Of a stretch of DNA of 59,011 nucleotides, positions 7,290-55,431 are shown piece after piece (within the stretch, counting starts at the first letter, position 1; each line of letters starts with the position of its first letter). A program made the position numbers and the translations under genes. The notes below the pieces were generated by a model. That model was not told the origin of the DNA. It ran no database searches and saw nothing but the letters and a program-made list of their open reading frames with translations. The stretch lies in assembly GCA_964431885.1 (NCBI GenBank), contig CAYSLK010000138.1, positions 1 to 59,011 on the forward strand, read 5' to 3'. Source of the DNA: an uncultured Dehalococcoidia bacterium. GTDB lineage: Bacteria > Chloroflexota > Dehalococcoidia > Lucifugimonadales > CAUZEB01.

Positions 7290-8729
7290 ATGAATTTTAA
7301 ACTTAATGAATTCACGTTTATGGATGCGACCGAACAGGCGGAACTAGTTAAACACAAACAAGTGAAACCCATAGAACTTGTTGAGGCAGCTATAAGACGA
7401 ATCGAGTCCGTAAATCCAAGCTTAAACGCGGTCATCCTTACAATGTATGATCAGGCTCGTGATATATCGTCAGGCCCGTTACAACAAGGTGCGTTCACCG
7501 GAGTGCCTTTCTTGATAAAAGACTTCCTGGCTGAATGCGAAGGGTTTGAATTTAATGAGGGTAGTAAATTCTTAAAGGGATATGTCCCGTTATCTGACAG
7601 TGAATTGGTAAAACGATATAAAGCTTCTGGTTTGATATTCGTTGGAAAAACAAATACACCAGAGTTCGCTATAGGTCCAACTACAGAGCCACGACTCAAT
7701 GGACCTACTCATAATCCGTGGGATCTAAGTCGAACAGCTGGAGGATCTAGCGGAGGCGCTGCCGCAGCAGTGGCTGCAAGAATGCTGCCCATCGCACATG
7801 GTAATGACGCCGGAGGATCCATCCGTATTCCAGCTGGCTGTTGTGGAGTATTCGGTCTAAAGCCTACGAGAGGCCGGAATCCCCTAGGTCCACACTATGG
7901 GGATTTGATAAATGGACTAGTTTCAGAGCACGTTTTAACTATTTCCGTAAGAGACAGCGCAAATATATTAGATGTCTCGTCGGGGCCAAATGCAGGCGAT
8001 CCATATTCTGCTCCACCTCCAAAACGGAATTATATAGATGAGGTAACCACACACCCCGGGCAACTACGTATTGCGTTTTCAACTCAGACACCACTTGGGA
8101 CCAAACTGCATCCAGAAGCAATTAAGTCGGTTCGCGAGACAGCTCAGTTATGCATAGATCTAGGTCATCAAGTAACAGAAATATCTCCAAATTTTGACGC
8201 TGAAACAATGTGGCGTAATTTCACAACAATGCTTGCGGCAGGGTTTGCATGGAGTCTGAAAGACTGGGAAAGACGACTCAATAAGAAAGCCACTCAGGAA
8301 ACGATAGAACCATTTGTGTGGTCATTCATGGCGAGGGGCAATGAAATCAGTGGACCTGATTACCTCTTAGCAGTTCAGACCGTGCAAAGGATCGCTAGAG
8401 ACGTAGCATTATTTTTTGAAAAATATGACGTCTGGCTTGGACCGACTTTGGGCGAACCTCCAGTACCCCTAGGAACTTTCGCATATTCCGGCAACGACCC
8501 TTTTGAAGTTCGTCGAAAGATGACAGCCTTTACTCCTTTCAATTTCGTTAGTAATGCCACAGGACAACCATCAATGTCAGTGCCTCTTTATTGGACAGGC
8601 GATGGTCTACCGATAGGTTCTCACTTTACTGGAAAGTTTGGTGATGAAGCAACCTTATTCCGGTTAGCTGCTCAACTCGAAGATGCGCGTCCATGGGCTA
8701 GCCGACTACCTCCAACTGTTGCGAGCTAG
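7290..8729 (+). CDS. amidase (amidase-signature family)
   Basis: AS signature [13 protein letters not shown] plus the [12 protein letters not shown] motif; 479 aa. Confidence 0.9.
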
Positions 8730-10457: not shown

Positions 10458-11495
10458 TTAGGGTTTACACGCCTTCATCACAGCCCTCACAGATGCTAGT
10501 GACGGGCGCGCGCTAACCACTCTTACAATTGCAGTATCTAGTCCCTGAGCTAAAGAGGTGAGTGCCTTGCTAGCACCTTCCGGCTTACCATAATATCCTA
10601 CACTTAGAAGTAATTCTGGGGGGAATGCCTCTATGATCTCGGAACGTGGTGCTCCATCCACTCGCATTTTGTCTATTCTCTTAAGAGTGTCAGAAAATCC
10701 GATTCGCTCAAAATGAGCTCTGTATCCCATTCGTCTCTCTTGGGAAGTTGGTACACGAGCACCAAGAGCATAGGGCATAAGTGATTTCGTGAAGGCTTCT
10801 CTAGCTAATTCCACGTCGTCGTCTATGCAAACGCGTATATACTCAACGGTCTTTATCTCGGATGGATCTCGGCCTGAAATGGTAGCACCTTCTGCAATCT
10901 TCTCTTTGCTCCAGACTCTCTGCTCAGGTGTGCACCAATTAAGTGCGGCACCATCAGCGAGTTCTCCAGCTAACTTCAACATCTTGGGACCTAAAGAACC
11001 TAGGTATATTGGTGTGCGCGGTGGAGGCCTTATGCCCAACCTAACATCAGTCAAGGTAACCACTTCACCTCTATAATCCAACTTCTCTCCAGACAGTAGC
11101 AAACGAAGGGTTGTCAAATAATCTCTCATCATCGAAAGAGCTGAAATATCAGGAAGTCCCATGCTAAGACGCGATGCAGATTGGTATACGGATCCAGCAC
11201 CTATTCCCAAGATAAACTTACCACCGGTTAATTCACTCAAGGTTCCACCGCTCATCGCTAAAGCAACTGGAGAACGGTACATCACCGGAACTACGGATAT
11301 ACCTGTGGTCAAACCTGTAGATGCTTCCCGTTGACTAGCTCTCCAACGATGGGCACAAACCTGAAAAGAGTCCCGGCCTGTCGTCTCAGGTGTCCAAATA
11401 CTGGTATATCCAAGTCTCGCAGCTTCGTATGCCATCTCTGCTTCATCCTCAAAGGATAACCGTAGAGAAGCATCTAATCCAAGCCCTATATCCAT
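10458..11495 (-). CDS. LLM-class (luciferase-like) flavin/F420-dependent oxidoreductase
   Basis: The N-terminus MDIGLGLD...EAARLGYTSIWTPE and overall TIM-barrel LLM pattern (LGIGAG, GPKMLKLAGELADG). Confidence 0.85.
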   Translation of the reverse strand: MDIGLGLDASLRLSFEDEAEMAYEAARLGYTSIWTPETTGRDSFQVCAHRWRASQREASTGLTTGISVVPVMYRSPVALAMSGGTLSELTGGKFILGIGAGSVYQSASRLSMGLPDISALSMMRDYLTTLRLLLSGEKLDYRGEVVTLTDVRLGIRPPPRTPIYLGSLGPKMLKLAGELADGAALNWCTPEQRVWSKEKIAEGATISGRDPSEIKTVEYIRVCIDDDVELAREAFTKSLMPYALGARVPTSQERRMGYRAHFERIGFSDTLKRIDKMRVDGAPRSEIIEAFPPELLLSVGYYGKPEGASKALTSLAQGLDTAIVRVVSARPSLASVRAVMKACKP

Positions 11496-33198: not shown

Positions 33199-34086
33199 AT
33201 GACAAACACTTTGACAATCATAGAAAGACTAGAAAGAGGGGATATTTTAATATCCGATGGAGCCACTGGCACTTATCTTCAAGCCCACGGGCTTGAACCT
33301 GGCGGTTGCCCGGAAGAATTTAATATTAGTCATCCTGAAATTATAAGACGCATGGCTCGCGAATACTTTGACGCAGGATCAGACTTGGTTCTAACAAATT
33401 CATTCGGTGGCAACAGATTTATGCAAGAGAAATACGGCTTAGGCGACAAGGTAAAAGAAATCAATCGTTTAGCAGCTGAACATGCAAAGAGCCAAACTCC
33501 ATCCGGTTGTTATGTAGTGGGTTCAATCGGCCCCACAGGCGAATTTCTGGAGCCACTTGGGCCGGTAACAGAAGAACAGATGCTAAACGCTTTCACAGAA
33601 CAAGCATGCGCCCTAGAAGAAGGAGGTGCTGATGCTGTAGTTATAGAGACACTTACTTCTATCGAAGAATGCGTTCTGGCAATAAAAGCTGCGAAGGAAA
33701 ATACAAAGCTGACAGTTATGGCTACCCTAACCTATGACAAAGGGCCAAGGGGTTTCTTCACTATGATGGGGGTAACACCTCAAATAGGAGTTACTGCTTT
33801 GAAAGAAGCAGGAGCTGATGTAATAGGTGCCAACTGTGGTAATGGGATAGACGTAATGGTCGAATTGGCCGCTGAGTTACGAGCTGTTACAAACGACTAC
33901 CTACTAATCCACTCAAACGCAGGAATACCATCTCTGCAAAACGGTGAAATAATATATCCCGAATCACCTAACTACATGGTCGATGGATTTCTACAATTAG
34001 TGGATCTTGGAGTAAATATACTAGGCGGCTGTTGCGGTTCGAATCCTGAACATATCAGAGCCTTAGCCAAGGCTATAAAAAATTGA
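33199..34086 (+). CDS. homocysteine S-methyltransferase-domain protein (MetH N-terminal / BHMT / MmuM type)
   Basis: ILISDGATGT, LVLTNSFG, and the Zn-ligand cysteines in GANCG and LGGCCGSNPEHI. Confidence 0.85.
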   Translation: MTNTLTIIERLERGDILISDGATGTYLQAHGLEPGGCPEEFNISHPEIIRRMAREYFDAGSDLVLTNSFGGNRFMQEKYGLGDKVKEINRLAAEHAKSQTPSGCYVVGSIGPTGEFLEPLGPVTEEQMLNAFTEQACALEEGGADAVVIETLTSIEECVLAIKAAKENTKLTVMATLTYDKGPRGFFTMMGVTPQIGVTALKEAGADVIGANCGNGIDVMVELAAELRAVTNDYLLIHSNAGIPSLQNGEIIYPESPNYMVDGFLQLVDLGVNILGGCCGSNPEHIRALAKAIKN

Positions 34087-34141
34087 ATCATTTTACTATC
34101 ATAAGATGAAATCTCTCGAATAGTAGGGGAAAGGAATTCTA

Positions 34142-34819
34142 ATGACTCTTGGTAAAAACGAAATATCGTATCAAGTCTACGACGTCCTGAACCGATATGG
34201 AACATGTGTTGAACTGATACCAGTAGACAAATATTTTCACGATATTACTATCGGTCTTTATCTAAAAAATAAGGTTTGCACTGTATGGACATTCAGTAAA
34301 CGACAAGGTGTTCATGAGAGAATTCTTCAAATCAGAAATCAGCTAGTCTCCCTTGGAGGAATGGTCCCAGTTGACGGAACCCACAATCAAGCTGAGTTCT
34401 CCTGCGGATATTTACACTTCAGACCTGCTAAATTTCTACTCAACCAAGCTGTAAATAAGAGCCCAGAATATTCTGCAAGTAATAATCCAATGACCATTAG
34501 AGATACGAAGAGTACATTGACTATCCAAGCAGTCGCTGTACAAAGAGATGATCAATGGGTCTACCAGATAGCTGGAAAGGGTGAAGCGCCCAACAAAGCC
34601 ATACGTATTCGGATGATAGTCGCAGGTTTCATTCGATATGGTGAAATGAATAAGGTTAATGACACGGAAGTATCCTTTTCCTGTGGCCAGCGTCACGATG
34701 ACATAACCAGGCTGTTACTGCCTTTTTCACGGAACATTTCTAGCGTGGAAAGCATGATCGCCGCAGAAGCTCTACGAGGTCAAATGACTACTGGCACTTT
34801 AGGTTTCACCCCGATCTAA
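34142..34819 (+). CDS. hypothetical protein with internal duplication (two FSCG..H repeats)
   Basis: 225 aa. MVPVDGTHNQAEFSCGYLHFRPAKFLL (residues ~74-100) and MNKVNDTEVSFSCGQRHDDITRLLL (~169-193) are clearly related repeats. I recognise no family. Confidence 0.6.
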   Translation: MTLGKNEISYQVYDVLNRYGTCVELIPVDKYFHDITIGLYLKNKVCTVWTFSKRQGVHERILQIRNQLVSLGGMVPVDGTHNQAEFSCGYLHFRPAKFLLNQAVNKSPEYSASNNPMTIRDTKSTLTIQAVAVQRDDQWVYQIAGKGEAPNKAIRIRMIVAGFIRYGEMNKVNDTEVSFSCGQRHDDITRLLLPFSRNISSVESMIAAEALRGQMTTGTLGFTPI

Positions 34820-34904
34820 CCCAACTGTAAACAACTTATTTGCTTTTATAGCCAGACTTCAACTTAACAGACCATGTTTTTACAAACATTGAGGAGGCCA
34901 TTAC

Positions 34905-35942
34905 ATGCCCACCAGTGCAACAATGACACCAAGAGAGCGAGTTTTAAACGCCCTGTCCGGCTCTCCTGTCGATCGTACTCCCGTAGCCAATCCAACAAGT
35001 GTGGCGACCGTAGAACTCATGGATATGGTGGATGCTCCATTTCCTGGCGCATGCCGTGATCCCGAAATGGCTGCTCGTCTAGCAGCTACGGGTCATACGA
35101 TACTGGGATTCGATTCCGTAATGCCGTATTTCACTATTATTCAGGAGTCTTCTGCGTTAAATTGTGAAATGCAGTGGGAAGGGAAAGATAATTGGCCAAC
35201 AGTGCGCATGTACAATCCGATTTGGAGAGGTCCTAACGACATCTCAATACCTCCCGATTTCCTTGATCATCCTGATAATCAGACAATCACCAAATCAATT
35301 GCGATGTTAAAGTCGGAATTTGGCAACGAAGTTGCAATAATAGGGAAAACTATGGGCCCATGGACACTAGCTTACCATGTATTTGGTGTGGAAAGTTTTC
35401 TTTTAAGTACTGTTGATGACCCTTCACTAGTTAAAAAAGGATTGAATAAATTGAAAGAGATTTCTATTCTCTTTGGGGAAGCACAAATTGACGCTGGGGC
35501 AGATATACTAACTTTTCCTGATCACGCAACAGGAGACTTAGTTAGTGGCGATTATTACAGAAGATTTCTTCAAGAACTGCACGTGGAAATGGCTGAACGA
35601 CTCTCAGTACCCCTAATTCTCCATATTTGCGGTAATACGCTCGACAGAATGAAATATATTGCTGAAACCGGCATGGCGGCTTTCCATTTCGATTCTAAGA
35701 ATGATCCTCAGTTAGCTATGGACGCAGTTGAAGGCAAAATAGCTATGGTTGGTAACATAAATAATCCTGAAACCCTGTACGCCAGAGGACCTGAGGAGGT
35801 TCGAGAGGAAGTATTCAGAGCTTTAGACGCTGGCGTAGATTTAATTGCTCCAGAATGTGCGATTCCTCTGGCAACGAAACTCGAAAATCTTCTTGAAATT
35901 CCTAGATCAGTAATAAAATGGCATGAAGAACGGGATGGATAG
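34905..35942 (+). CDS. uroporphyrinogen-decarboxylase-family methyltransferase (MtaA/MtbA/MtsA-like, Zn-dependent methylcobamide:thiol type)
   Basis: MTPRERVLNALSG.PVDR.P N-terminus, Zn motif LILHICGNT (H-x-C) and a distal Cys in APECAIP. RBS GGAGG 7 nt upstream. Confidence 0.85.
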   Translation: MPTSATMTPRERVLNALSGSPVDRTPVANPTSVATVELMDMVDAPFPGACRDPEMAARLAATGHTILGFDSVMPYFTIIQESSALNCEMQWEGKDNWPTVRMYNPIWRGPNDISIPPDFLDHPDNQTITKSIAMLKSEFGNEVAIIGKTMGPWTLAYHVFGVESFLLSTVDDPSLVKKGLNKLKEISILFGEAQIDAGADILTFPDHATGDLVSGDYYRRFLQELHVEMAERLSVPLILHICGNTLDRMKYIAETGMAAFHFDSKNDPQLAMDAVEGKIAMVGNINNPETLYARGPEEVREEVFRALDAGVDLIAPECAIPLATKLENLLEIPRSVIKWHEERDG

Positions 35943-36143
35943 TCCCTATCACACTATAGAGTCCGTACTTCCAAAGGTGATTATTTTTCAAATGCCTAAT
36001 CTATTGCTTCAAAATCACATCTTTCCAATACAAAGTGGCTAGATTTAAATTTAACTGATAAAATCTTTTATGATCATCAATGTCTATTTATAGATGACCA
36101 CAATCTATGGAGGTCTATACCTAAATGGTGGGGAAGAAAACAA

Positions 36144-36887
36144 ATGCCCATTACACATGATGGTTTGAAGAAGGAATTTGAATATATCGGTAAGCCCTTT
36201 GAGTTGAATCACATCCAAAGTCTATTCAACGACTCCGACCCATTAATGCACGAAATGGCTCACAACCTCATAATAGGCAATCAACACGAAGTAGATCGTC
36301 TAACAAAAAAAGCTCTTGACTCAGGGTTTTCCGCTAATACTATCCTAGACGATGGTCTCATATCTGGTATGGCTATTGTCGGGATTAAATTTAGAGACAA
36401 TTTTATTTTCGTCCCTGAGGTTTTAGTGGCGGCTCGTGCAATGAAAGCAGGGATGGCACACTTGGAACCTATATTGTCAGCCTCTGGTATAAAACCAATT
36501 GGCACTATCATAATGGGTACCGTAAAGGGCGATCTGCACGACATAGGTAAAAACCTTTGCATCATGATGCTAAGAGGAGCCGGATTCACTGTTCACGATC
36601 TCGGAGTTGACACCACATCAGACACATTCATTGAAGCGGTATCTGAACACAATGCTGATATTTTAGGAATGTCAGCATTGTTAACCACAACCATGCCTAA
36701 TATGGGCAAGACTATAGAAGCATTTGAAGAGTTGGGGCTACGTTATGAAGTTAAAATCATGGTCGGAGGTGCTCCATTGACACAAGAATTCGCCGATGAT
36801 ATGGGTGCCGATGGGTACGGACAGGACGCTATATCCTGCGTAGATCTCGCTAAAACATTTGTAGGCATCCAGACATTAAATCAATAG
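36144..36887 (+). CDS. corrinoid (cobalamin-binding) protein, MtaC/MtbC-like
   Basis: B12-binding motifs GDLHDIGKN (DxHxxG), MSALLTTT (SxL) and MVGGAP (GG), preceded by a helical cap domain. Confidence 0.9.
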   Translation: MPITHDGLKKEFEYIGKPFELNHIQSLFNDSDPLMHEMAHNLIIGNQHEVDRLTKKALDSGFSANTILDDGLISGMAIVGIKFRDNFIFVPEVLVAARAMKAGMAHLEPILSASGIKPIGTIIMGTVKGDLHDIGKNLCIMMLRGAGFTVHDLGVDTTSDTFIEAVSEHNADILGMSALLTTTMPNMGKTIEAFEELGLRYEVKIMVGGAPLTQEFADDMGADGYGQDAISCVDLAKTFVGIQTLNQ

Positions 36888-36923: not shown

Positions 36924-37166
36924 ATGCGGCAAGAAGTTGATAAGGAAAGTTACAAAGCCAGTATAGAACGTCTTCATGATATCTTCAAAGACATGTCTAA
37001 AAGTGTTGACAAAGTGTCGCGTTGGCGCTGTCCATACAAGAATGCGAAAGATAGATGTACCGCTAATTTCGGCTGTCGAAACCAGGATCGAGACGTAACA
37101 CCAGGTACCTTATACATTTGCAATGATAATAACGAATTAGACTACCGTAGCGCTTGGGAAATCTAA
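36924..37166 (+). CDS. hypothetical small four-cysteine protein
   Basis: 80 aa with WRCPYKNAKDRCTANFGCRNQ...YICND (C-x7-C-x5-C-x14-C). Begins 36 nt after the corrinoid protein gene. Confidence 0.5.
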   Translation: MRQEVDKESYKASIERLHDIFKDMSKSVDKVSRWRCPYKNAKDRCTANFGCRNQDRDVTPGTLYICNDNNELDYRSAWEI

Positions 37167-37364: not shown

Positions 37365-37697
37365 GTGATGAAGAAGGATCGCTCTCCGACACTGAAAGAA
37401 ATCGGTGATTTGATTTCCCATTCGCTAGATGCGGGAATTAAGTTGAAACGCTTACAAGGCTTTGACATAGACCTTTCAGCTAATAAGGATTTTCACAAAG
37501 TATTTTTTTCAGCCATATGCTCGTGTGGTACTGCAGCTGTACTTAGCGTAGAGGTTTCCAATAATAAAACCATGAATGAAATCAAACGCGCGCTCCCGTC
37601 ACTAGTAAATAAACTCACAGTTCAGAGTGAAATGTTCTATCGTATGTCCTGCGACATGCACAAGAAAATGCGGAGCGGTCTCACAGACAAACTCTAA
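37365..37697 (+). CDS. hypothetical protein
   Basis: 110 aa ORF (GTG 37365 or ATG 37368 after GAGG). Contains a CSC motif. No family recognised. Confidence 0.45.
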   Translation: MMKKDRSPTLKEIGDLISHSLDAGIKLKRLQGFDIDLSANKDFHKVFFSAICSCGTAAVLSVEVSNNKTMNEIKRALPSLVNKLTVQSEMFYRMSCDMHKKMRSGLTDKL

Positions 37698-37727
37698 ACA
37701 CCAAGATCTCTTGATAAAAGGATTAAC

Positions 37728-38165
37728 ATGGCAAGGCGTCCAAAAAAGCAATTTACAGAGGCAGAGGCATTACAACGAGCCAAAAAGTTTTCCGAAGGCT
37801 ATGTTAAAAAAGGTCCGTACGAATTTTTCCCCGAACAAGATGTTGTTCAGGTGGTGCAAGAAGGATTGGGAGAAAATGAAAGGAAATTCGGATATCGTTA
37901 TTGCCCTTGAATGCCCCTAAGCGGTGATCCCGTCGAGGATCGCAAGAAAATATGTCCTTGTGAGCGTCATCATGAAGACATAGAACGAGATGGATTCTGT
38001 ATATGAATGTTTTTTGTAAGCGAAGAGTTTCTTCGCAAGTATGAATCTGGGGAAGATTTCAGCCAAACTATAGACGAGGCTGTTCCGCTTGGCGAAGAGT
38101 TGTTTGGCGAGGGTGGAGGCAAACGAGAGTTCAACGATAAAAAACGTAAACAAGCTTCAGAATAG
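37728..38165 (+). CDS. ferredoxin:thioredoxin reductase catalytic-subunit-like protein, predicted selenoprotein with two Sec (TGA 37908-37910 and 38004-38006)
   Basis: Reading through the two in-frame TGAs gives a 145-residue protein, KKFSEGYVKKGPYEFF..VVQVVQEGLGENERKFGYRYCP-U-MPLSGDPVEDRKKICPCERHHEDIERDGFCI-U-MFFVSEE... It is collinear with the FTR catalytic chain (..KFSEQYA.R..TYF...VI.GLA.HK..LG.PLCPCRHY..NCPCVPMRERKECHCMLFL). The TGAs fall on the second Cys of the first motif and the second Cys of the third motif. RBS AAGGA lies upstream of ATG 37728, and a stem-loop follows each TGA. Confidence 0.8.
37924..37943 (+). promoter_or_regulatory. SECIS-like stem-loop for TGA 37908
   Basis: 7 bp stem GUGAUCC/GGAUCGC (one G-U pair) with loop CGUCGA. 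20 nt separate the UGA from the loop, and G is the second loop base. Confidence 0.55.
38020..38036 (+). promoter_or_regulatory. SECIS-like stem-loop for TGA 38004
   Basis: Perfect 7 bp stem GCGAAGA/UCUUCGC with loop GUU. 20 nt separate the UGA from the loop, and G is the first loop base. Confidence 0.6.
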
Positions 38166-38206
38166 CTTAACATTTATTATATAAGCAAATTGAAAGGAAC
38201 GAAGTC

Positions 38207-38455
38207 ATGGAAGATACAGGAGTTCAAGTTTATAGCTCCAACGGCTGAGGTCCCTGCCAAATGGTGAAGGTGTACCTTTCACGAAAGGGAATTCCATTTG
38301 AGGAATTTAATGTGTCATTAGACAGAGAAGCATTGACACGGCTGGTTAAAATGGGTTACAGAACGACACCCGTTGCGATTATTGGTAACGAGAAGGTAGT
38401 TGGATATAGCCCTTCCAAACTCGATTCTGCATTGAATACCGCCGGGCTGAGTTGA
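38207..38455 (+). CDS. NrdH/glutaredoxin-like redoxin, predicted selenoprotein (Sec at TGA 38246-38248; active site U-G-P-C)
   Basis: ATG 38207 (RBS AAGGA about 8 nt upstream) gives MEDTGVQVYSSNG-U-GPCQMVKVYLSRKGIPFEEFNV..TPVAIIGNEKVVGYSPSKL. It is collinear with NrdH/Grx (IYT..DCVQC...L...G..FE..NV...LPVV....GF.P), with the TGA at the first Cys of CxxC. The ORF track only reports the part after the TGA (38261..38455). Confidence 0.8.
38264..38282 (+). promoter_or_regulatory. SECIS-like stem-loop for TGA 38246
   Basis: Stem GUGAAGG/CC(U)UUCAC (7 bp, one bulged U) with loop UGUA. 22 nt separate the UGA from the loop, and G is the second loop base. Confidence 0.5.
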
Positions 38456-38544
38456 GATTCTAATATCTGAGCAATACTTCTGGCCTATTCGCAATAATTA
38501 CACAGACGTATACGACAATTTAATCTAATATGAACCGATGTCTA

Positions 38545-38574
38545 TTGACCAAACATCTGGTCACGGTCTAGAAT
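38545..38574 (+). promoter_or_regulatory. candidate promoter for tRNA-Asp
   Basis: TTGACC (38545-38550), an 18 nt spacer, then TAGAAT (38569-38574), ending about 35 nt before the tRNA 5' end. This is pattern match only. Confidence 0.25.
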
Positions 38575-38608
38575 TCATCGAAGGCATTGACTGACAGTTT
38601 AGAAACGG

Positions 38609-38683
38609 GGCCCCGTGGTGTAGTGGTTTTAACACACTGCCCTGTCAAGGCAGAGATCGCCGGTTCGAATCCGGTCGGGGTCG
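38609..38683 (+). tRNA. tRNA-Asp (anticodon GTC)
   Basis: Hand-folded cloverleaf. Acceptor GGCCCCG/CGGGGTC (one G-U pair), D stem GTGT/ACAC, anticodon stem CTGCC/GGCAG with loop CTGTCAA, T arm GCCGG-TTCGAAT-CCGGT. CCA is not encoded. Confidence 0.9.
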
Positions 38684-38771
38684 CTTCTCAATTTAAACAA
38701 AATAGATAGCGCCTAAAGCACGAGCATACAATAAAACAGAAAGGCCCATAGTTATCAATGGAGGTGTATTG

Positions 38772-43596: not shown

Positions 43597-45021
43597 ATGG
43601 ACGAAACTTTAGTATTCCTACCTGCTACCGAATTATTAGAATTGATTGCTTCCAAACAGATATCGCCCGTGGAACTAACCAAACTTTATTTCAGACGTAT
43701 AGAACGCATAGACCCGCAATTAAATTCTTACCTTATTACAATGGAAGATGAGGCATTAAAGACGGCTGTAACTGCTGAACAAACCATCATGAAGGGTGAA
43801 GAATTAGGTGCATTACATGGCCTGCCAATTTCTATTAAAGACACGCAAATGACCAAAGGAGTAAGAACAACGACAGGCTCGCTTGTTTTCCAAGATCGAA
43901 TTCCTGACAAAGATTCAGCCGTGGTGGAACGAGTTAGGAAAGCCGGAGCAATATTACTTGGTAAAACAAATACTCCCGAGTTTGGGTTGGTAGGCACATG
44001 TGCAAACAATTTGGGAGATCACGGTCGTAATCCGTGGAACACTGAGTATACTCCTGGAGGGTCGAGTGGTGGAGCCGCAGCAGCCATGTCTGCTTGTTTA
44101 TGTGCTTTATCAACTGGCGGAGATGGAGGAGGTTCAATACGTATTCCCGCAAGTTTCTGTGGTATCTACGGCATAAAGCCAACTCAAGGCAGAGTATCCG
44201 GCTACACAGGAATCCAAACACCACCTATTCTTAATATATTTGGCCAACAGGGACCGCTAAGTCGGACCGTTAAAGACTCCGCTCTTCTTTTACAAGTTAT
44301 GGCTGGGTACGACCCTAGAGATCCCTCATCATTGCGTGAGGCTACACCCGATTTTCTCGCAGCTGTTGATCAAGACATACGCGGATTACGGGTAGCGTGG
44401 AGTCCGGATTATGGCTTCGCGAATGTAGATCAGGAAGTAAATGAAGTAACCCAGACAGCAGCAAAGGCATTCGAAGATCTAGGGTGCCATATTGAAACCA
44501 TAGACTTGAGATTAGAATCGCCGTACGACGCATATGGACCTATCTATGAAACTGCCGCATACGCATCCTACGGTCAATACATAAAATCGCATGGTGAACA
44601 ACTGACTGAATTCTCCAGATTTTTTATAGAAGCTGGATCGAAAATCTCCGGCGCCGACTATGCTAGAGCCCTTGGTCTGATAGATAGACTTAGATCGCAA
44701 ATGGACGATGTATTCACCGAGTATGATCTACTACTGTCACCCACCCTATCCGTACCCGGTGTTCGGGTCGGTGAATTTCCTGCAGAGATAGCCGGAAAGC
44801 CTGCTTATCCCCACCGATATTTTGGCTTTCATCCTTTCACTTATCCTATTAATGCAATAGGTCACGCAGCAGCCAGTATCCCAGCCGGCTTCTCCTCAAC
44901 AGGATTACCTATTGGTTTACATATAGTGGGAAAAAGAGGCGCCGAAACAACAGTAATAGCTGCTTCAGCCGCTTTTGAGAAGGCAAAGCCATGGATCCAC
45001 CATAACCCACCTGTGTCTTAA
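43597..45021 (+). CDS. amidase (amidase-signature family)
   Basis: [11 protein letters not shown] and [12 protein letters not shown] motifs. Confidence 0.9.
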   Translation: MDETLVFLPATELLELIASKQISPVELTKLYFRRIERIDPQLNSYLITMEDEALKTAVTAEQTIMKGEELGALHGLPISIKDTQMTKGVRTTTGSLVFQDRIPDKDSAVVERVRKAGAILLGKTNTPEFGLVGTCANNLGDHGRNPWNTEYTPGGSSGGAAAAMSACLCALSTGGDGGGSIRIPASFCGIYGIKPTQGRVSGYTGIQTPPILNIFGQQGPLSRTVKDSALLLQVMAGYDPRDPSSLREATPDFLAAVDQDIRGLRVAWSPDYGFANVDQEVNEVTQTAAKAFEDLGCHIETIDLRLESPYDAYGPIYETAAYASYGQYIKSHGEQLTEFSRFFIEAGSKISGADYARALGLIDRLRSQMDDVFTEYDLLLSPTLSVPGVRVGEFPAEIAGKPAYPHRYFGFHPFTYPINAIGHAAASIPAGFSSTGLPIGLHIVGKRGAETTVIAASAAFEKAKPWIHHNPPVS

Positions 45022-46686: not shown

Positions 46687-48207
46687 TTAAGTAAGATTTT
46701 CCCATTCGACATTACTCTCGAAAGCGTATGCGGTATTCAAAAGGCCAGCATCATCGAAATGTCGACCTATCAGCATTAGGCCCACAGGTAGACCGCTAGG
46801 CTTTCCACAAGGGACACTAATGGCCGGATGGCCCGTAATATTTGTTGGAGCGGTATTCCCCGACATATTCGAGCTATACTCCATAAGTTCACTAAGGCTT
46901 GCATTAGACCTGTATTGATGGGCCTTCATGGGAGTTGTAGGCATAGCTAACATATCTACTTGCTGAAAAGCACGATCATAACTATCTCGCAAAATTTTAG
47001 CAGCGTTCTGCGCTCTGCCATACACACTTCCATGATAAGTTTGATTTAGGTAAGTTCCCAATAAGAGCATAATCTTTACACTGGGGGGGAAATCATTCCC
47101 GTTCGTGATACGAGACTTACCAAGAACGTTGGCAAATGCGACATTATGGTGTCCACCAGAATGGTACCCTACGCCATTTTCACGTAACCCCATTGCACCA
47201 CCTTCGGCCGCAATTGCCCACGCAATGACTTTTCCGATATCTCGGTGCTCTGGAATTGACACTTCTTTAATTTCAGCACCCAAATCGCCCAAGACAGTCA
47301 AAGCATTACGAACCGAAGTATCCACCTCAGGATCTGATATCTTAAGACCAAAACCTTCCCTAACCAATCCTATTCTTAGGCCACTTATATTCTTTGATAA
47401 ATTATCAACATAGGATTCTACATTAAATTCAATTTGACGCGGATCCTTATGATCATTACCAGCTATAACTTCTAGTAATAGGGCAACGTCTTCTACATTA
47501 CGAGCCATGGGACCGGCATGATCGATGGTCGCATCTGCTCCTACTATTCCAGTATATCGAACTAGTCCAACCGTTGGCTTTAGACCCACCACGTCAAACC
47601 ATGATTCCGGCATACTGATGGATCCACCCTGATCACAACCGATAGTCATATCGACGTAATCATAATATAGAGATGCCGCTGACCCTCCGGAAGAACCTCC
47701 CGCCAGATAATGAGTATTATGCGGATTTAAAATGGGACCATAAGCACTTATCGCCCCTGCTCCAGAATAGGCGAAATCGTCCATGTTAAGTATCGCTGTG
47801 ATTTTCCCACCTTCTCCCAAGATCCTCGTAACTATCGTTGCATCGTCATCCGGCACAAATCCATCTAAGACTGTGGATCCACATGTCAAGGGTATGCCAG
47901 CAACACTTATATTGTCTTTCAAGCCAATTCTTTTTCCTGCCAACTTACCATTACTGCTGCCAGAAACCACGCATCTCCGTATAATGGCATTGAAAGGATC
48001 TTCCCTACAACTCGGCTTATCTAGAATCGAAACATCCCTCGTTATACTTGATCCGTTAGTAGGTCTAATACTAAAAAATTTGTCGAATGATTTTACCATT
48101 GGTTTCATTAGTGACTCAAACACTTCCAGTTCCTCATCATTTAACTCCATATGATTTTCGTTTGCTAAACGGTACAAATCATTTTTTGACGGTGGTCTGA
48201 TTTTCAT
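46687..48207 (-). CDS. amidase (amidase-signature family)
   Basis: GGSSGGSAAS and the CDQGGSISMP motif; 506 aa. Confidence 0.9.
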   Translation of the reverse strand: MKIRPPSKNDLYRLANENHMELNDEELEVFESLMKPMVKSFDKFFSIRPTNGSSITRDVSILDKPSCREDPFNAIIRRCVVSGSSNGKLAGKRIGLKDNISVAGIPLTCGSTVLDGFVPDDDATIVTRILGEGGKITAILNMDDFAYSGAGAISAYGPILNPHNTHYLAGGSSGGSAASLYYDYVDMTIGCDQGGSISMPESWFDVVGLKPTVGLVRYTGIVGADATIDHAGPMARNVEDVALLLEVIAGNDHKDPRQIEFNVESYVDNLSKNISGLRIGLVREGFGLKISDPEVDTSVRNALTVLGDLGAEIKEVSIPEHRDIGKVIAWAIAAEGGAMGLRENGVGYHSGGHHNVAFANVLGKSRITNGNDFPPSVKIMLLLGTYLNQTYHGSVYGRAQNAAKILRDSYDRAFQQVDMLAMPTTPMKAHQYRSNASLSELMEYSSNMSGNTAPTNITGHPAISVPCGKPSGLPVGLMLIGRHFDDAGLLNTAYAFESNVEWENLT

Positions 48208-50912: not shown

Positions 50913-52139
50913 ATGCATCTGATGTACTTTACAGAACAGCCGATGTCAACATATCCAGAGCAAGAAGCTCTCGATGCAGGAGGTGTGAGTGCTTTAATGC
51001 TCTCAAATAAACACTTCAACCCAGAGGAAGGGAGCAGGCTATATAACGAGCGGTTAGAAGAGTATATTTACGCAGAGGAAATGGGTGTGGATGGAATCAT
51101 GTTAAATGAACACCATAACGCCCCTTTTTGCATGCAAGCCAGAGTCAACATATTTGCAGCCGCATTAGCTGCTGTAACTGAAAGAGTTAAAATAGTCCTT
51201 CTAGGCAACCCTTTGCCCGTCAATGAAAACCCACTCCAGACTGCTGAAGAAATAGCTATGGTAGACATGATGAGCAAAGGTCGTCTAGTATCTGGCTTTG
51301 TAAGAGGTGGAGGAACAGAACAATTTGCTAACAATACGAACCCTGCATATAACCGTGAACGTTTTACAGAAGCTCATGATTTACTAATTAAGACCTGGAC
51401 TGAACCTGGTCCTTTTAGATGGGAAGGTAATCATTACCAATTCCGAGTGGTAAATCCATGGGCATTACCCCTACAAAAACCTCATCCTCGCATCTGGATA
51501 CCAGGGGTAGCTAGTTTGGAAACTATCATATGGGCTGCTGAACACAGATATCCCTATATATGCTTGAACACTAGTATAGAACAAACAAAACAGATTTGGG
51601 AACTCTATGATCGAACGGCTGAAAAATCAGGATATATCGCAGGGCCGGAGCAAAGAGGTTACCTAATCCGATGCCATGTAGCAGAAACCGAAGAGAAAGC
51701 AATTAAAAATGGCAGAGAATTTATGTGGATGCAGGGTGAATTTACTGGCGTAGGGCACCCGACCTGGTTCAGTCCCCCTGGTTATACTTCTGCTCAGTCA
51801 CGTAAGCGGGCTGCTGAAGGACAAAAACTTAGGAGTAAGACTACCTTTGAAGATATGCTAAACATGGGGATGATAATTGCTGGAACCCCAGATCAAGTTG
51901 TAGAAAGGTTAAAGAAAATAATGGAGGAAACCCGCCCATCCATTTTAGCTCTATGGGGAAACGACGGTAAAGTAGATCACAAGGATTCCTTGGAATGTAT
52001 TCGTTTATTAGGGCAAGAAGTCATGCCGAAAGTAAGAGAAATTGGAGATAGGCTTGGTCTCCTAAGCCCATTTGAGTTAAATTCTCCTGTCAGTCTAGCA
52101 GCCTCACAACTAAACAACCAGTGGACTGCCTCAGCATGA
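50913..52139 (+). CDS. LLM-class flavin-dependent oxidoreductase
   Basis: GVDGIMLNEHH and a luciferase-like barrel pattern; 408 aa. Confidence 0.85.
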   Translation: MHLMYFTEQPMSTYPEQEALDAGGVSALMLSNKHFNPEEGSRLYNERLEEYIYAEEMGVDGIMLNEHHNAPFCMQARVNIFAAALAAVTERVKIVLLGNPLPVNENPLQTAEEIAMVDMMSKGRLVSGFVRGGGTEQFANNTNPAYNRERFTEAHDLLIKTWTEPGPFRWEGNHYQFRVVNPWALPLQKPHPRIWIPGVASLETIIWAAEHRYPYICLNTSIEQTKQIWELYDRTAEKSGYIAGPEQRGYLIRCHVAETEEKAIKNGREFMWMQGEFTGVGHPTWFSPPGYTSAQSRKRAAEGQKLRSKTTFEDMLNMGMIIAGTPDQVVERLKKIMEETRPSILALWGNDGKVDHKDSLECIRLLGQEVMPKVREIGDRLGLLSPFELNSPVSLAASQLNNQWTASA

Positions 52140-52628: not shown

Positions 52629-53132
52629 TCAATCGATTTGAAGTTGATCGCCCTCTATAACAATTACCTGGCCACGAAAAGATACTATAGCTCTCGTGAA
52701 ACGCCTCAATTCTTGTCGAAGTCCATCCATACGTCGCATAACTTCTGATTCGTAAGGTTCATTAGGTGCCATAGCCATAGATTTACCCCAAAGTCCGGGT
52801 TGAGGTAAATTCTTTAAGAACTGACGTAAGTGAATCAAAAAGGCCTCAAATGTTTGTGAGGACACTTCATATATAGGCGTAGCAGTCTGTGGTTCAGTAA
52901 ACATAAACTGCAGTATCCACTCATCATTTGTAACCCTGTTAGACATGACAAGACTAGGCCAGGGTTGACTAGAAAAGACCGTCCTAGTCTCGTCGTTATC
53001 TTTTCCGACCTCCCTGAGTGTTGCTTGTAAAACTCTTAATAAGGAAGAAACATACGACACTGGCAAATGTTCGGATCTTAAAGCGATTTCCAGCCCTAGC
53101 AGACCTTTTTGTTCCTGGTTTACTTTATTCAT
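52629..53132 (-). CDS. hypothetical protein, probably co-transcribed with selB
   Basis: 167 aa ORF starting 18 nt downstream of the selB stop on the same strand. No family recognised. Confidence 0.55.
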   Translation of the reverse strand: MNKVNQEQKGLLGLEIALRSEHLPVSYVSSLLRVLQATLREVGKDNDETRTVFSSQPWPSLVMSNRVTNDEWILQFMFTEPQTATPIYEVSSQTFEAFLIHLRQFLKNLPQPGLWGKSMAMAPNEPYESEVMRRMDGLRQELRRFTRAIVSFRGQVIVIEGDQLQID

Positions 53133-53150: not shown

Positions 53151-55013
53151 CTAACGTAGGATACGTACATCTCCTACACGACGAGTAATCCGTTCTTTAT
53201 CTAAATAATCCATAAGGGCCAAAGCATATTTACGACTCGTTCCAAATATATCCCTAACGTTAGCGATAGTTATCTGACCGTGTTCGTTGATATGTTTACC
53301 AATTCCGTCTACCATTTCCACATATGCCGACATGGAAAATGTAACACTATCACTTACTCTGACTACTTGACCTTGATCAACAAGAGCGTTCACCACTTCC
53401 GGATCGATTATTACATCAGTAGGCGGTGCGAATCTATCCGATTCCAGCAAACTTATATATTGCCCTACAACTTCTTGATGTAACTCACTAAAACTAGGAC
53501 TGTGTCCAGTGAGCCTAACTATGGCACCACTTTCAACTATATTCAATTCTCTTACAAGCATGGCCAGTATTTGATTAAATATTTGAGGTGTTATATCTAG
53601 CCTACTGCGAACCTCCTCTTTGGGAGCTCCTTGACGTAAAGGAAACTGTGCATGATAACGCTTCAAATATTCTACGGTCTCCTGCACAACACTATCGAAT
53701 CCTGTCTTTGTATATAAGTAGTCACCTGGTTTGACAACTTTCTGCCCAAGTACAACCACTAAACTATCTGATGCCATGCGATCTATTATATTTTTTGCAT
53801 ACTCGAACTCAAGATTAGCCTTGGAAACCAGCTCGCTAAACTCACAAGGCTCTGACATTTCTATAGTTTTTAGAATTATATCGCTTTCAGACCCTTTAGA
53901 CATAGTCTCCAGTCTGCTCAGGGTAGGGGAATGCATTCTCCTATGACGACGAGCATGAGTGTCCACAATAGTTCCACCACCGAGTGTAGTTCTATTTGAC
54001 CTTACAACAAAATAATCACCCTTTACCACTGCGATCGGAGAATTCAATTTAAGTTGTGCCCACGTAATATCTCCTGGATTGGAACGTTGTTTATCAAGTA
54101 AACGAACTTTTGCTATCACTTCGTTGCTTCCAGAATGTACAGTTACAAACATGTTATGCGATATAGGAAATTGCGAGTCAGTCACAACTCTCAAACTGAC
54201 ATCAATCGCCATAGTAGGATTTAACCAGCCTGGAGATGCCATCACTTCGCCTCGGCTAATTTTATCCGGGGATATACCACTCAAATTGGCGGCCACACGA
54301 TTCCCTGGTAAAGCGTGAGTCTGATTCCGTTTGTGTGTTTGTAACCCTCTTATACGGGTCTTCTCCCCAGACAACACTAACTCCATTTCAGTACCAATAG
54401 TTAAAGAACCATCTGTTAGAGTTCCGGTTACTACCGTACCAAATCCTTGTACAGTAAACGATCGGTCAATAGGGAGGCGTGGCCTCCCTAGACTGCGCTT
54501 TATGGGGACATCTTGTAACAGGTTATCAAGTTTTGAAATTAGCAAAGACATGCCCTCGCCTGTTACACCCGAAACTCTCAAGACTGGAATTCCTTCCATT
54601 GTCGTACCTTGGAGAGCTTCGTTAATATCACCTTCCACTAGATCAAGCCAATCACTATCAACAAGATCACTTTTTGTTAAAGCTACCAAGCCATGTTTGA
54701 CCTGAAGAAGATCCAATATCGCTACGTGTTCCCTCGTTTGAGGCATCACCGATTCGTCAGCAGCTACTACTATCAAAGCCAGATCTATACCACCAATGCC
54801 TGCTAACATATTATTTATAAAACGCTCGTGGCCGGGAACATCAACAATACTTACTTGGTTGCCGCTAGGCAAATCGAGCCAAGCAAAACCCAAGTCGATA
54901 GTCAATCCTCGTTCTTTTTCTTCGACGAATCTATCTGGATCTATTCCAGTAAGTCTCTCAACTAGAGTTGACTTACCATGGTCTACATGACCAGCAGTCC
55001 CCACAACATACAT
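53151..55013 (-). CDS. selB: selenocysteine-specific translation elongation factor
   Basis: GTAGHVDHGKSTL, DVPGHERF and TKSDL GTPase motifs, EF-Tu-like domains II/III, and a C-terminal winged-helix tail (RDIFGTSRKYALALMDYLDKERITRRVGDVRIL). ATG 55013 has GGAG 7 nt upstream; the ORF-track ATG is at 55028. Confidence 0.9.
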   Translation of the reverse strand: MYVVGTAGHVDHGKSTLVERLTGIDPDRFVEEKERGLTIDLGFAWLDLPSGNQVSIVDVPGHERFINNMLAGIGGIDLALIVVAADESVMPQTREHVAILDLLQVKHGLVALTKSDLVDSDWLDLVEGDINEALQGTTMEGIPVLRVSGVTGEGMSLLISKLDNLLQDVPIKRSLGRPRLPIDRSFTVQGFGTVVTGTLTDGSLTIGTEMELVLSGEKTRIRGLQTHKRNQTHALPGNRVAANLSGISPDKISRGEVMASPGWLNPTMAIDVSLRVVTDSQFPISHNMFVTVHSGSNEVIAKVRLLDKQRSNPGDITWAQLKLNSPIAVVKGDYFVVRSNRTTLGGGTIVDTHARRHRRMHSPTLSRLETMSKGSESDIILKTIEMSEPCEFSELVSKANLEFEYAKNIIDRMASDSLVVVLGQKVVKPGDYLYTKTGFDSVVQETVEYLKRYHAQFPLRQGAPKEEVRSRLDITPQIFNQILAMLVRELNIVESGAIVRLTGHSPSFSELHQEVVGQYISLLESDRFAPPTDVIIDPEVVNALVDQGQVVRVSDSVTFSMSAYVEMVDGIGKHINEHGQITIANVRDIFGTSRKYALALMDYLDKERITRRVGDVRILR

Positions 55014-55431
55014 ATGGTGACTCCACATTTCAAAGTGATCCTAAGAATAGCATAGGCATCGTTTAGGGGCAATTTGATAAACATTGGTCGTCCCTACCAA
55101 ACGTCCAATAACTTTAGAAGATGCTAATAAGAAGTAACCTAATAGGCTGGCATCTCTTTATCTTGTATTTTCATGTATAAAGGATCTGAATAGTCTCACC
55201 TCTAATTGTCCAATGAAGAATCAAGTTAATCTTCTCTGATAAAAAAGAATACTGTGTCGCTACAAAATCTATATCGTAGGTGCATACATACATGTGGACT
55301 CATTAGCTTTCATAGCATACAATCCTATCTAGACATGTAATATAGAAAGCGTTGCCACCAAGCCAAGAATCTATTACTAGCTTTTATTGACTTGGCCATT
55401 AAAGCCATCCCGTGAATTAGGAGGATGATAA

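Follow-up and report, generated by a model that had tools for sequence, protein, structure and literature searches.

Introduction

Selenoprotein glutaredoxins and "glutaredoxin-like" (Grx-like) proteins with a UxxC active site, where U is selenocysteine (Sec), are an established class (PMC2398784, PMC9312934, PMC13188914), and a ferredoxin-thioredoxin reductase (FTR) with two Sec residues at its redox-active positions is known from a Global Ocean Sampling (GOS) survey read (PMC2398784). Here we describe a gene for a small redoxin that lies next to a gene for such a two-Sec FTR in contig CAYSLK010000138.1 of an uncultured Dehalococcoidia bacterium; the whole stretch of DNA analyzed, 59,011 nt, is referred to below as the window. 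A sequence-only reading of the window had proposed that the redoxin gene is read through an in-frame TGA as Sec, and had cited Sec-containing thioredoxin- and glutaredoxin-like proteins as an established class, which the three papers named first bear out for the glutaredoxin-like proteins. A redoxin with Sec in place of Cys is expected in kind, and the gene product is an unannotated new member of that class. The two-Sec FTR and the UxxC redoxins are both already known; what is new is the invariant pairing of a Sec-redoxin with a diselenide-type FTR.

The Sec-glutaredoxin class (PF00462; the Clostridium oremlandii glutaredoxin and the GOS "Grx" and "Grx-like" proteins) shares with the redoxin the thioredoxin fold, the use of Sec for the N-terminal Cys, and a bacterial selenocysteine insertion sequence (SECIS) inside the coding region. 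It also provides a precedent for "tandem use," in which a Sec-glutaredoxin serves a Sec-enzyme: in Clostridium, a glutaredoxin with Sec is adapted to the reduction of Sec-MsrA (Kim et al., 2011, cited in PMC13188914). The redoxin differs in being nearer to NrdH and YruB than to glutathione-dependent glutaredoxins, in its G-P dipeptide, and in its FTR rather than msrA context.

NrdH (TIGR02194) and YruB (TIGR02196) resemble the redoxin in size (about 80 residues), fold, full-length alignment, and placement of the active site at the CxxC position. The redoxin differs from both in scoring below their cutoffs, in having UGPC rather than CVQC or CMQC, in the absence of nrdI, nrdE, and nrdF, and in the replacement of Cys by Sec. 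We take a C-V/M-Q-C motif and an nrdHIEF operon to be the marks of the NrdH family, and the redoxin has neither. The Uxx-star selenoproteins (NF041212, NF041114, NF041211, and NF047338) have, like the redoxin, a distant glutaredoxin/YruB-like fold with Sec, but take their name from a Sec that lies three residues ahead of the stop, whereas the redoxin has its Sec at the N-terminal CxxC position with 68 residues after it.

The remaining points of comparison are the FTR/thioredoxin system and, from Methanosarcina acetivorans, the FTR-like ferredoxin:disulfide reductase (4tpu). The FtrB protein encoded next to the redoxin has the same fold and the same CPC...CPC...CxC pattern, the redoxin shares the G-P dipeptide of thioredoxin, and the mechanism that we propose below copies the heterodisulfide relay of the FTR/thioredoxin system. 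In contrast to that system, the genes described here have Sec at both redox-active Cys positions of the FTR and at the nucleophile of the redoxin, and the acceptor has a glutaredoxin fold; there is no FTR variable subunit or rubredoxin domain, and a separate gene, orf110, lies upstream instead. The window FtrB belongs to the NF041072 family, which was first seen in GOS reads and whose published description covers the reductase only. Within a literature coverage that was incomplete, no paper was found to connect SAR202 with selenoproteins, to give the FtrB family a SAR202 origin, or to report a redoxin with Sec as the partner of a Sec-FTR. The conserved peptides of the redoxin family were not found in the GOS supplementary sequence files (one of which was incomplete), where "UGPC" occurred only in unrelated peroxiredoxin- or thioredoxin-like reads.

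Results

Start and Extent of the Redoxin Gene

The mechanical list of open reading frames (ORFs) places the start of the redoxin gene at ATG 38261 (MVKVYLSRKG...). The sequence-only reading had instead traced the gene from ATG 38207, with its own AAGGA ribosome-binding site, through 13 codons and a TGA to GPCQ-MVKVYL, and all of these elements can be seen directly in the sequence: ATG 38207 is followed by 13 codons (MEDTGVQVYSSNG), the TGA, GGT CCC TGC CAA (GPCQ), and ATG 38261. The redox motif U-G-P-C is encoded by 38246-38257, and the gene has its own terminator, TGA 38453-38455. Because TGA also terminates the redoxin gene, it is not generally reassigned. The FtrB-like gene upstream ends at TAG 38163-38165, so that the distance of 41 nt to ATG 38207 previously given for the spacing from the Sec-FTR gene is exact. 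The features of the locus are collected in Table 1.

Fold, Active Site, and Family Placement

When the TGA was written as Cys, the read-through form of the redoxin scored 49.4 bits against the Pfam Glutaredoxin profile (PF00462), well above the gathering threshold of 22.9, and matched profile positions 1-58 of 60. The truncated 64-residue form scored 29.0 bits and matched positions 14-58 only; the loss of profile positions 1-13 agrees with the earlier remark that an ORF call at 38261 removes the active site.

Among solved structures, redoxin residues 6-77 aligned end to end with glutaredoxin-like proteins, and in every alignment shown the TGA position fell on the first Cys of CxxC (CPHC in 7c10, CPPC in 3zit and 3zij, and CVQC in the NrdH structures 4hs1, 4f2i, 1h75, and 1r7h). 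The scores were 40-42 bits against NrdH-like structures and 25-26 bits against Grx3-type structures. An exhaustive HMMER search, with the 68-residue part that follows the TGA as the query, yielded full-length relatives with Cys. The closest Cys homolog, P0095 (78 residues, 56% identical), reads MSEIKVYTSES-CGPC-QMVKAHL and has CGPC where the window has UGPC. Sec at this position is thus paired with Cys in relatives, both in the CGPC of P0095 and in the first Cys of the CPHC, CPPC, and CVQC motifs of the PDB proteins, which bears out the proposal that the TGA lies on the N-terminal nucleophilic Cys of CxxC. Comparison with the NrdH, glutaredoxin, and thioredoxin families, together with a search for CGPC or UGPC orthologs, was the check that the sequence-only reading had suggested; it yielded P0095 with CGPC, 80 loci with UGPC (described below), and CxxC in the PDB relatives. 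The U-G-P-C motif that it had named proved invariant in 81 sequences.

The best-scoring NCBIfam model was YruB (TIGR02196), at 74.8 bits against a curated cutoff of 88.55, and the redoxin also scored below the curated cutoff of NrdH-redoxin (TIGR02194; 62.6 bits against 85.75). Its matches to the Uxx-star models NF041212, NF041114, NF041211, and NF047338 were weak (21-42 bits) and all below their cutoffs, the top match being 41.9 bits against a cutoff of 66; the Sec of the redoxin is residue 14 of 82. There was no match to the thioredoxin domain PF00085 at E ≤ 0.01. With the WCGPC of thioredoxin the redoxin shares only G-P-C, and the residue before U is Gly rather than Trp. There is no nrdI, nrdE, or nrdF beside the gene, whose neighbors are FtrB, orf110, and tRNA-Asp. 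By curated cutoffs, the redoxin is not a member of NrdH, YruB, or Uxx-star, and by Pfam it is not a thioredoxin. The NrdH/glutaredoxin fold proposed at the outset is therefore upheld by Pfam and by the structures as a glutaredoxin/NrdH-like fold, but bona fide NrdH membership is not, given the scores below cutoff and the absence of an nrd context. The predicted product is an 82-residue glutaredoxin-fold protein of NrdH/YruB-like size and sequence with a thioredoxin-like active-site dipeptide (Sec14-Gly-Pro-Cys17), and it is best placed among the Sec-containing glutaredoxin-like redoxins as a new member, at the family level, that has a thioredoxin-type dipeptide.

Conservation around the UGA

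In a word-indexed search of 5.8 billion proteins, 93 relatives were retrieved. All of them are called from the equivalent of Met 38261. With the exception of a single 45-residue fragment they are 62-70 residues long, nearly all reach across no more than about 72%-78% of the query, and the named members are annotated as "glutaredoxin family protein" or "NrdH-redoxin" with 65 residues. No full-length annotated copy of the redoxin was present in the protein collections searched. We then scanned the GTDB species representatives and read the DNA at each of 80 related loci, all from SAR202/Dehalococcoidia/Chloroflexota, whose redoxins are 59%-89% identical to that of the window over the part after the TGA. 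An in-frame stop is present five codons before the called Met in all 80 loci, preceded by the peptide xVxV[YF][TS]SxG and followed by GPC[HQR]. When the window is included (n = 81, the set used below), the codon at the Sec position is TGA in every sequence.

The residues that are invariant before the TGA vary in their codons (four codons for Val, four for Ser, and three for Gly); such variation at kept residues is the signature that selection on a translated peptide would leave. In 81/81 sequences a start codon (ATG in 48, GTG in 20, TTG in 13) precedes the TGA by 10-14 codons, and 74 of these starts have a Shine-Dalgarno-like motif. As judged from the gain in Pfam score, the recurrence in 80/80 loci, and the codon variation, the stop-interrupted reading frame is more than a chance arrangement. 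The sequence-only reading would have been contradicted if homologs consistently started at Met 38261 and lacked CxxC or UxxC, or if 38207-38260 were not conserved in related genomes. The 93 calls do start at that Met, but the DNA at the loci holds the peptide and the TGA, and the peptide before the TGA is kept in 80/80. Because every locus has the conserved upstream peptide and the TGA, the starts at Met 38261 are a gene-calling artifact.

These data bear directly on the simplest alternative, in which the TGA is a true stop, the 13 codons before it form an unrelated ORF, and a 64-residue protein begins at Met 38261. The calling of the 93 database homologs at 62-70 residues and of the named members at 65 residues is what it would predict, and TGA does terminate the window gene and 11 of its 80 orthologs. 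However, its product would lack strand β1 and the whole active site, the upstream peptide is constrained at the amino-acid level with synonymous change, the TGA aligns with the catalytic Cys, and a constrained hairpin and a selB gene (see below) are present. We give this alternative next to no credence.

The terminal stop codons of the 81 sequences are TAG in 42, TAA in 26, and TGA in 12 (the window gene among them), with one locus truncated. As TGA still serves as a terminator in these genomes, the recoding is site specific. Two public gene calls, P0096 (...SVG-W-GPCH...) and P0123 (...SNG-W-GPCH...), translate the TGA as Trp, and were presumably made with an alternative (UGA = Trp) genetic code. 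They could mislead homology-based annotation.

A SECIS-like Hairpin Follows the UGA

Prediction of a SECIS, which had been put forward as a check on the Sec assignment, gave a 7-bp hairpin at 38264-38282 in which synonymous variation is suppressed. In its stem, 38264-38270 (GUGAAGG) is paired with 38276-38282 (CCUUUCAC, taken as CUUUCAC following the last C of the loop), and its loop is UGUAC (38271-38275; UGUAY across relatives). The hairpin begins 15 nt past the UGA, and the same single hairpin was obtained in all single-sequence folds and in the consensus fold of the 81 sequences. All 81 sequences keep the pairing, and such changes as occur produce G-U wobble pairs only.

The bacterial SECIS (bSECIS) model, as quoted in PMC13188914, specifies a loop of 3-9 nt, a stem of 4-16 bp, a minimum free energy (MFE) of ≤ -7.5 kcal/mol, a G in the first two loop positions, and 16-37 nt from UGA to loop. 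The redoxin hairpin has a loop of 5 nt with G then U at positions 2-3, a stem of 7 bp, and a UGA-loop distance of 22 nt. Its geometry agrees with the published bacterial model, and its MFE is borderline for the minimal segment. An archaeal or eukaryote-like SECIS in the 3' untranslated region was also considered and was dropped, since the loci are from Chloroflexota with bacterial SelB.

Codon usage gives the strongest evidence for the hairpin. The codons for Val, Val, Leu, and Ser in the stem (GTG, GTG, CTT, and TCA) have diversities of 0, 0, 0, and 0.10 bit among 80 distinct sequences, compared with 1.09-1.90 bits for the 13 other invariant codons of the gene with 4- or 6-fold degeneracy. 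The four stem codons are the four lowest of 17, which by our own arithmetic has a rank probability of about 1/2380. Three sites in the stem-loop vary: AAA/AAG, giving A-U or G-U; one TCG, giving U-G; and TAY in the loop. The stem is closed by an Arg codon that is CGN without exception; AGR, which is common elsewhere in the gene, does not occur there.

More distant homologs that are truncated in the databases lend independent support: they have a TGA at the same place (as UMFC, UMAC, UVPC, or UGPC) and, in an unchanged register, a stem-loop such as GCGAAAG-AGUAU-CUUUCGC. Five metagenome "glutaredoxin" calls that start after the active site are truncated selenoproteins of this kind: L088:452-655 (UMFC), L089:280-486 (UVPC), L090:2498-2698 (UMFC), L092:360-563 (UMAC), and L093:121-318 (UGPC). 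As these calls share the TGA and the stem-loop, the mis-annotation of hidden Sec extends beyond SAR202.

Selenocysteine Machinery on the Contig

A second line of independent support is that the contig encodes SelB, which scored 341.7 bits on TIGR00475 (cutoff 242.25) and has the Pfam domains GTP_EFTU, Beta-barrel_SelB, SelB-wing_2, and SelB-wing_3. The 167-residue ORF that adjoins selB (52629-53132) matched no family. When the window was crudely scanned for further TGA-interrupted ORFs, the output was too noisy, and the convincing cases were only the three known ones.

In the mechanism that we envisage, the hairpin would recruit the contig-encoded SelB carrying Sec-tRNA(Sec) to UGA 38246, and UGA 38453, which has no such hairpin, would terminate the redoxin. 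Alternatively, UGA 38246 could be read as Cys or Trp by near-cognate or reassigned decoding, as the W in the P0096 and P0123 gene calls might be taken to imply. Against this, TGA is a terminator in the same gene family, the recoded sites occur only at catalytic Cys positions of two adjacent redox proteins, a hairpin lies at a fixed distance after each recoded UGA with selB on the contig, and a Trp in place of the nucleophile would inactivate the fold. Read-through as Cys or Trp is very improbable. Reading of UGA 38246 as Sec by SelB- and SECIS-dependent insertion is strongly supported by these sequence features, and we hold with high confidence that the redoxin is a selenoprotein.

The FtrB Neighbor and the Three-Gene Cassette

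The protein encoded upstream of the redoxin scored 226 bits on the equivalog model NF041072 ("FtrB family double-selenoprotein"; cutoff 160), so that the Sec-FTR recognized earlier from the sequence is a double-Sec FTR catalytic subunit. Its Sec codons (37908-37910 in C-P-U and 38004-38006 in C-I-U) stand around an intact C-P-C, and the two U positions align with the second Cys of CPC and of CxC in 4tpu, 7pwe, 7bzk, and 1dj7. The matching residues of the Synechocystis FTR, Cys57 and Cys87, form its redox-active disulfide, and the other four Cys bind the [4Fe-4S] cluster. The GOS study came to the same view of its two-Sec FTR read (PMC2398784).

FtrB lies directly upstream of the redoxin gene on the same strand in 80/80 loci; the linkage of a redoxin gene to an FTR catalytic-subunit gene that a relay of the FTR/thioredoxin type implies is thus found at every locus. 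Both FtrB TGAs are kept (80/80 for the first and 79/79 for the second), and each is followed by a hairpin of its own. In the hairpin after UGA-1, all six pairs form in 58 of 75 sequences and five of six in the other 17, with reduced synonymous variation. The hairpin after UGA-2 has 7/7 pairs in 71/75 sequences and suppressed synonymous variation, and three kinds of compensatory double change occur in it, in 7 of the 75 sequences. G-U is present in the loops of all three hairpins.

The first gene of the cassette, orf110, precedes FtrB in 75/80 loci; among the five where it does not, at least two are on contigs that are truncated. It encodes an invariant C-x-C ... C-x-x-H, and it matched no Pfam or NCBIfam model. 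Its AlphaFold model is confident (predicted local distance difference test score, 87) but matched no fold in the PDB. As judged by these profile and fold comparisons, it is neither an FTR variable subunit nor a rubredoxin. The orf110 product may supply the cassette with a third component, such as a metal site or an electron entry point. No terminator-like site was found within the three-gene cassette, including the 41-nt gap between FtrB and the redoxin gene.

Genes for a C69 peptidase, a corrinoid protein, and an MtaA-like methyltransferase lie near the cassette, and each is common to only 1/80 loci. Because the other neighbors in the window are each shared by so few loci, the three-gene cassette is selectively retained.

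Table 1. Features of the redoxin locus and of selB (positions in the window)
Feature	Position	Strand	Basis or remark
orf110, conserved small protein, 110 residues, first gene of the three-gene cassette	37365-37697	+	Precedes FtrB at 75/80 loci
FtrB-family double-selenoprotein (FTR catalytic subunit type)	37728-38165	+	NF041072, Pfam FeThRed_B
SECIS-like hairpin after FtrB UGA-1, GUGAUC ccgucgag GAUCGC	37924-37943	+	13-nt spacer
SECIS-like hairpin after FtrB UGA-2, GCGAAGA guu UCUUCGC	38020-38036	+	13-nt spacer
Shine-Dalgarno-like AAGGA	38194-38198	+	8 nt before true start codon ATG 38207
Predicted complete coding sequence of the redoxin, a selenoprotein of 82 residues, MEDTGVQVYSSNG-U-GPCQMVKVYL...AGLS	38207-38455	+	Sequence, profiles, conservation, structure alignments
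In-frame UGA read as Sec (predicted), residue 14, first position of U-G-P-C	38246-38248	+	TGA in 81/81; aligns with Cys
Bacterial-type SECIS hairpin (predicted)	38264-38282	+	All folds; paired in 81/81
selB, Sec-specific elongation factor binding SECIS hairpins	53151-55028	-	TIGR00475 and Pfam domains

Other genes were noted in the window. A methyl-transfer cluster spans 33199-36887, just upstream of the cassette, and comprises a homocysteine/betaine S-methyltransferase-like gene (33199-34086, +), an MtaA/CmuA-family methyltransferase gene (34905-35942, +), and a gene for an MtgC/MtbC-like corrinoid protein (36144-36887, +). Its content suggests demethylation of methylated amines or glycine betaine, and it is not kept beside the cassette in other loci. 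An ORF for an 80-residue Cys-rich protein (36924-37166, +; ...RWRCPYKNAKDRCTANFGCRNQ...YIC...) matched no family; it is a candidate gene, seen next to the cassette in only 1/80 loci. Downstream, tRNA-Asp(GTC) (38609-38684, +), the sole tRNA of the window, lies 153 nt past the redoxin stop and is preceded by a promoter-like TTGACC-18-TAGAAT at 38545-38574. The contig also carries three amidase paralogs (7290-8729, +; 43597-45021, +; 46687-48207, -) and two luciferase-like monooxygenases (10458-11495, -; 50913-52139, +).

Discussion

In the FTR-thioredoxin relay, the exposed Cys of FTR forms a heterodisulfide with the N-terminal Cys of the thioredoxin CGPC. We propose the redoxin as the dedicated substrate of FtrB because its gene is the first 3' of FtrB, at a distance of 41 nt and with no terminator-like site between them, and because Sec takes the place of both redox-active Cys in FtrB. 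The [4Fe-4S] FtrB would accept single electrons from a ferredoxin-type donor and open its U61-U93 diselenide; the exposed U61 would then attack U14 of the oxidized redoxin to give a transient intermolecular Se-Se bond, the resolution of which would release the reduced redoxin, and this would pass its reducing power to downstream targets. A Se-Se intermediate would be expected because both partners at the heterodisulfide step would be Sec. The redoxin itself would alternate between two states, a selenol/thiol pair and an intramolecular selenenylsulfide. On the model of the FTR-thioredoxin relay, we lean toward the view that the diselenide FtrB has the redoxin as its dedicated acceptor.

The main alternative is that the redoxin is a real selenoprotein but is reduced by NADPH-thioredoxin reductase or another donor instead of FtrB, in the manner of NrdH and YruB-type redoxins, and that the adjacency of the genes reflects co-regulation, a shared selenium supply, or inherited order. 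The solved relatives of the redoxin include NrdH proteins, which are reduced by thioredoxin reductase; its closest Cys homologs pair with DsbD_TM/CcdA and Redoxin genes; and the 80 syntenic loci are all from one clade. Yet the adjacency on the same strand is kept in 80/80 loci although the redoxins are only 59%-89% identical and other flanking genes are not kept, Sec is co-conserved at all three redox positions, and the gap is 41 nt with no terminator-like site. We consider a donor other than FtrB unlikely, and retain the FtrB-to-redoxin relay.

A fuller version of that relay is conceivable, although we put it forward tentatively and do not assume it: an all-selenium ferredoxin-thioredoxin system in SAR202, in which a diselenide FTR (U61/U93) would reduce a dedicated Sec-redoxin (U14-G-P-C17) through a Se-Se intermediate, with orf110 as a third, possibly metal-binding, subunit or electron entry point, and in which the three genes and three Sec codons would have co-evolved as a cassette.

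The overall interpretation, that of a UGPC Sec-redoxin whose UGA is recoded by a hairpin and which is the proposed substrate of the neighboring FtrB, has to be set against several observations that count against it. The MFE of the hairpin is -7.3 kcal/mol for the minimal 33 nt, which just misses -7.5, and -14.3 kcal/mol for a 55-nt segment. No Rfam SECIS family was found, either in the whole window at gathering thresholds or in 37700-38620 at E ≤ 10; the hits in these scans were limited to the tRNA and a chance snoRNA-like match. The folding energy of the hairpin is not unusual in comparison with shuffled sequences (z = -0.85 to -1.5). RNAalifold detected no compensatory pair in the redoxin hairpin among the 81 sequences, and the one compensatory pair in an 11-sequence set with distant homologs was not significant, as it was matched by 165 of 500 shuffles. 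Covariation in this hairpin is not significant because the stem hardly varies, and the case for it rests on synonymous-site suppression, register, and SelB rather than on covariation. The gene for tRNA-Sec (selC) was not found in the window, where tRNA-Asp was the only tRNA detected, and selA and selD were not seen among the window ORFs scanned (a part of the total) or next to selB. Since all 80 loci are from one clade, inheritance rather than selection could account for part of the synteny. Finally, the closest Cys homologs adjoin DsbD_TM/CcdA and Redoxin genes, not FTR genes, and the FTR pairing is therefore not general to this redoxin family: P0153 and P0115 lie beside DsbD_TM, P0097 lies beside a major facilitator superfamily (MFS) transporter, and P0095 is on a contig of 533 nt, none with an FTR gene. 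With these points taken into account, we regard the overall interpretation of the sequence as likely to be right.

The public copies of the redoxin that we found are all cut to 62-70 residues and lack the active site, except for the two calls that translate UGA as Trp, and the mis-annotation touches SAR202, which ranks among the most abundant clades of bacteria in the dark ocean. Because redoxin calls are truncated at the UGA, counts of the marine Chloroflexota selenoproteome are underestimates, and many records would be set right by a curated model for the redoxin family. A two-Sec FTR invariably paired with a Sec-redoxin provides a testable hypothesis, that of a thiol-disulfide relay rebuilt wholly on selenium. 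This hypothesis bears on why Sec might be chosen over Cys, whether for redox potential, for the kinetics of exchange with a diselenide, or for resistance to over-oxidation, and it bears on the selenium demand of SAR202. The cassette is a probable ferredoxin-linked route of disulfide reduction in organisms whose redox metabolism is known from genomes alone.

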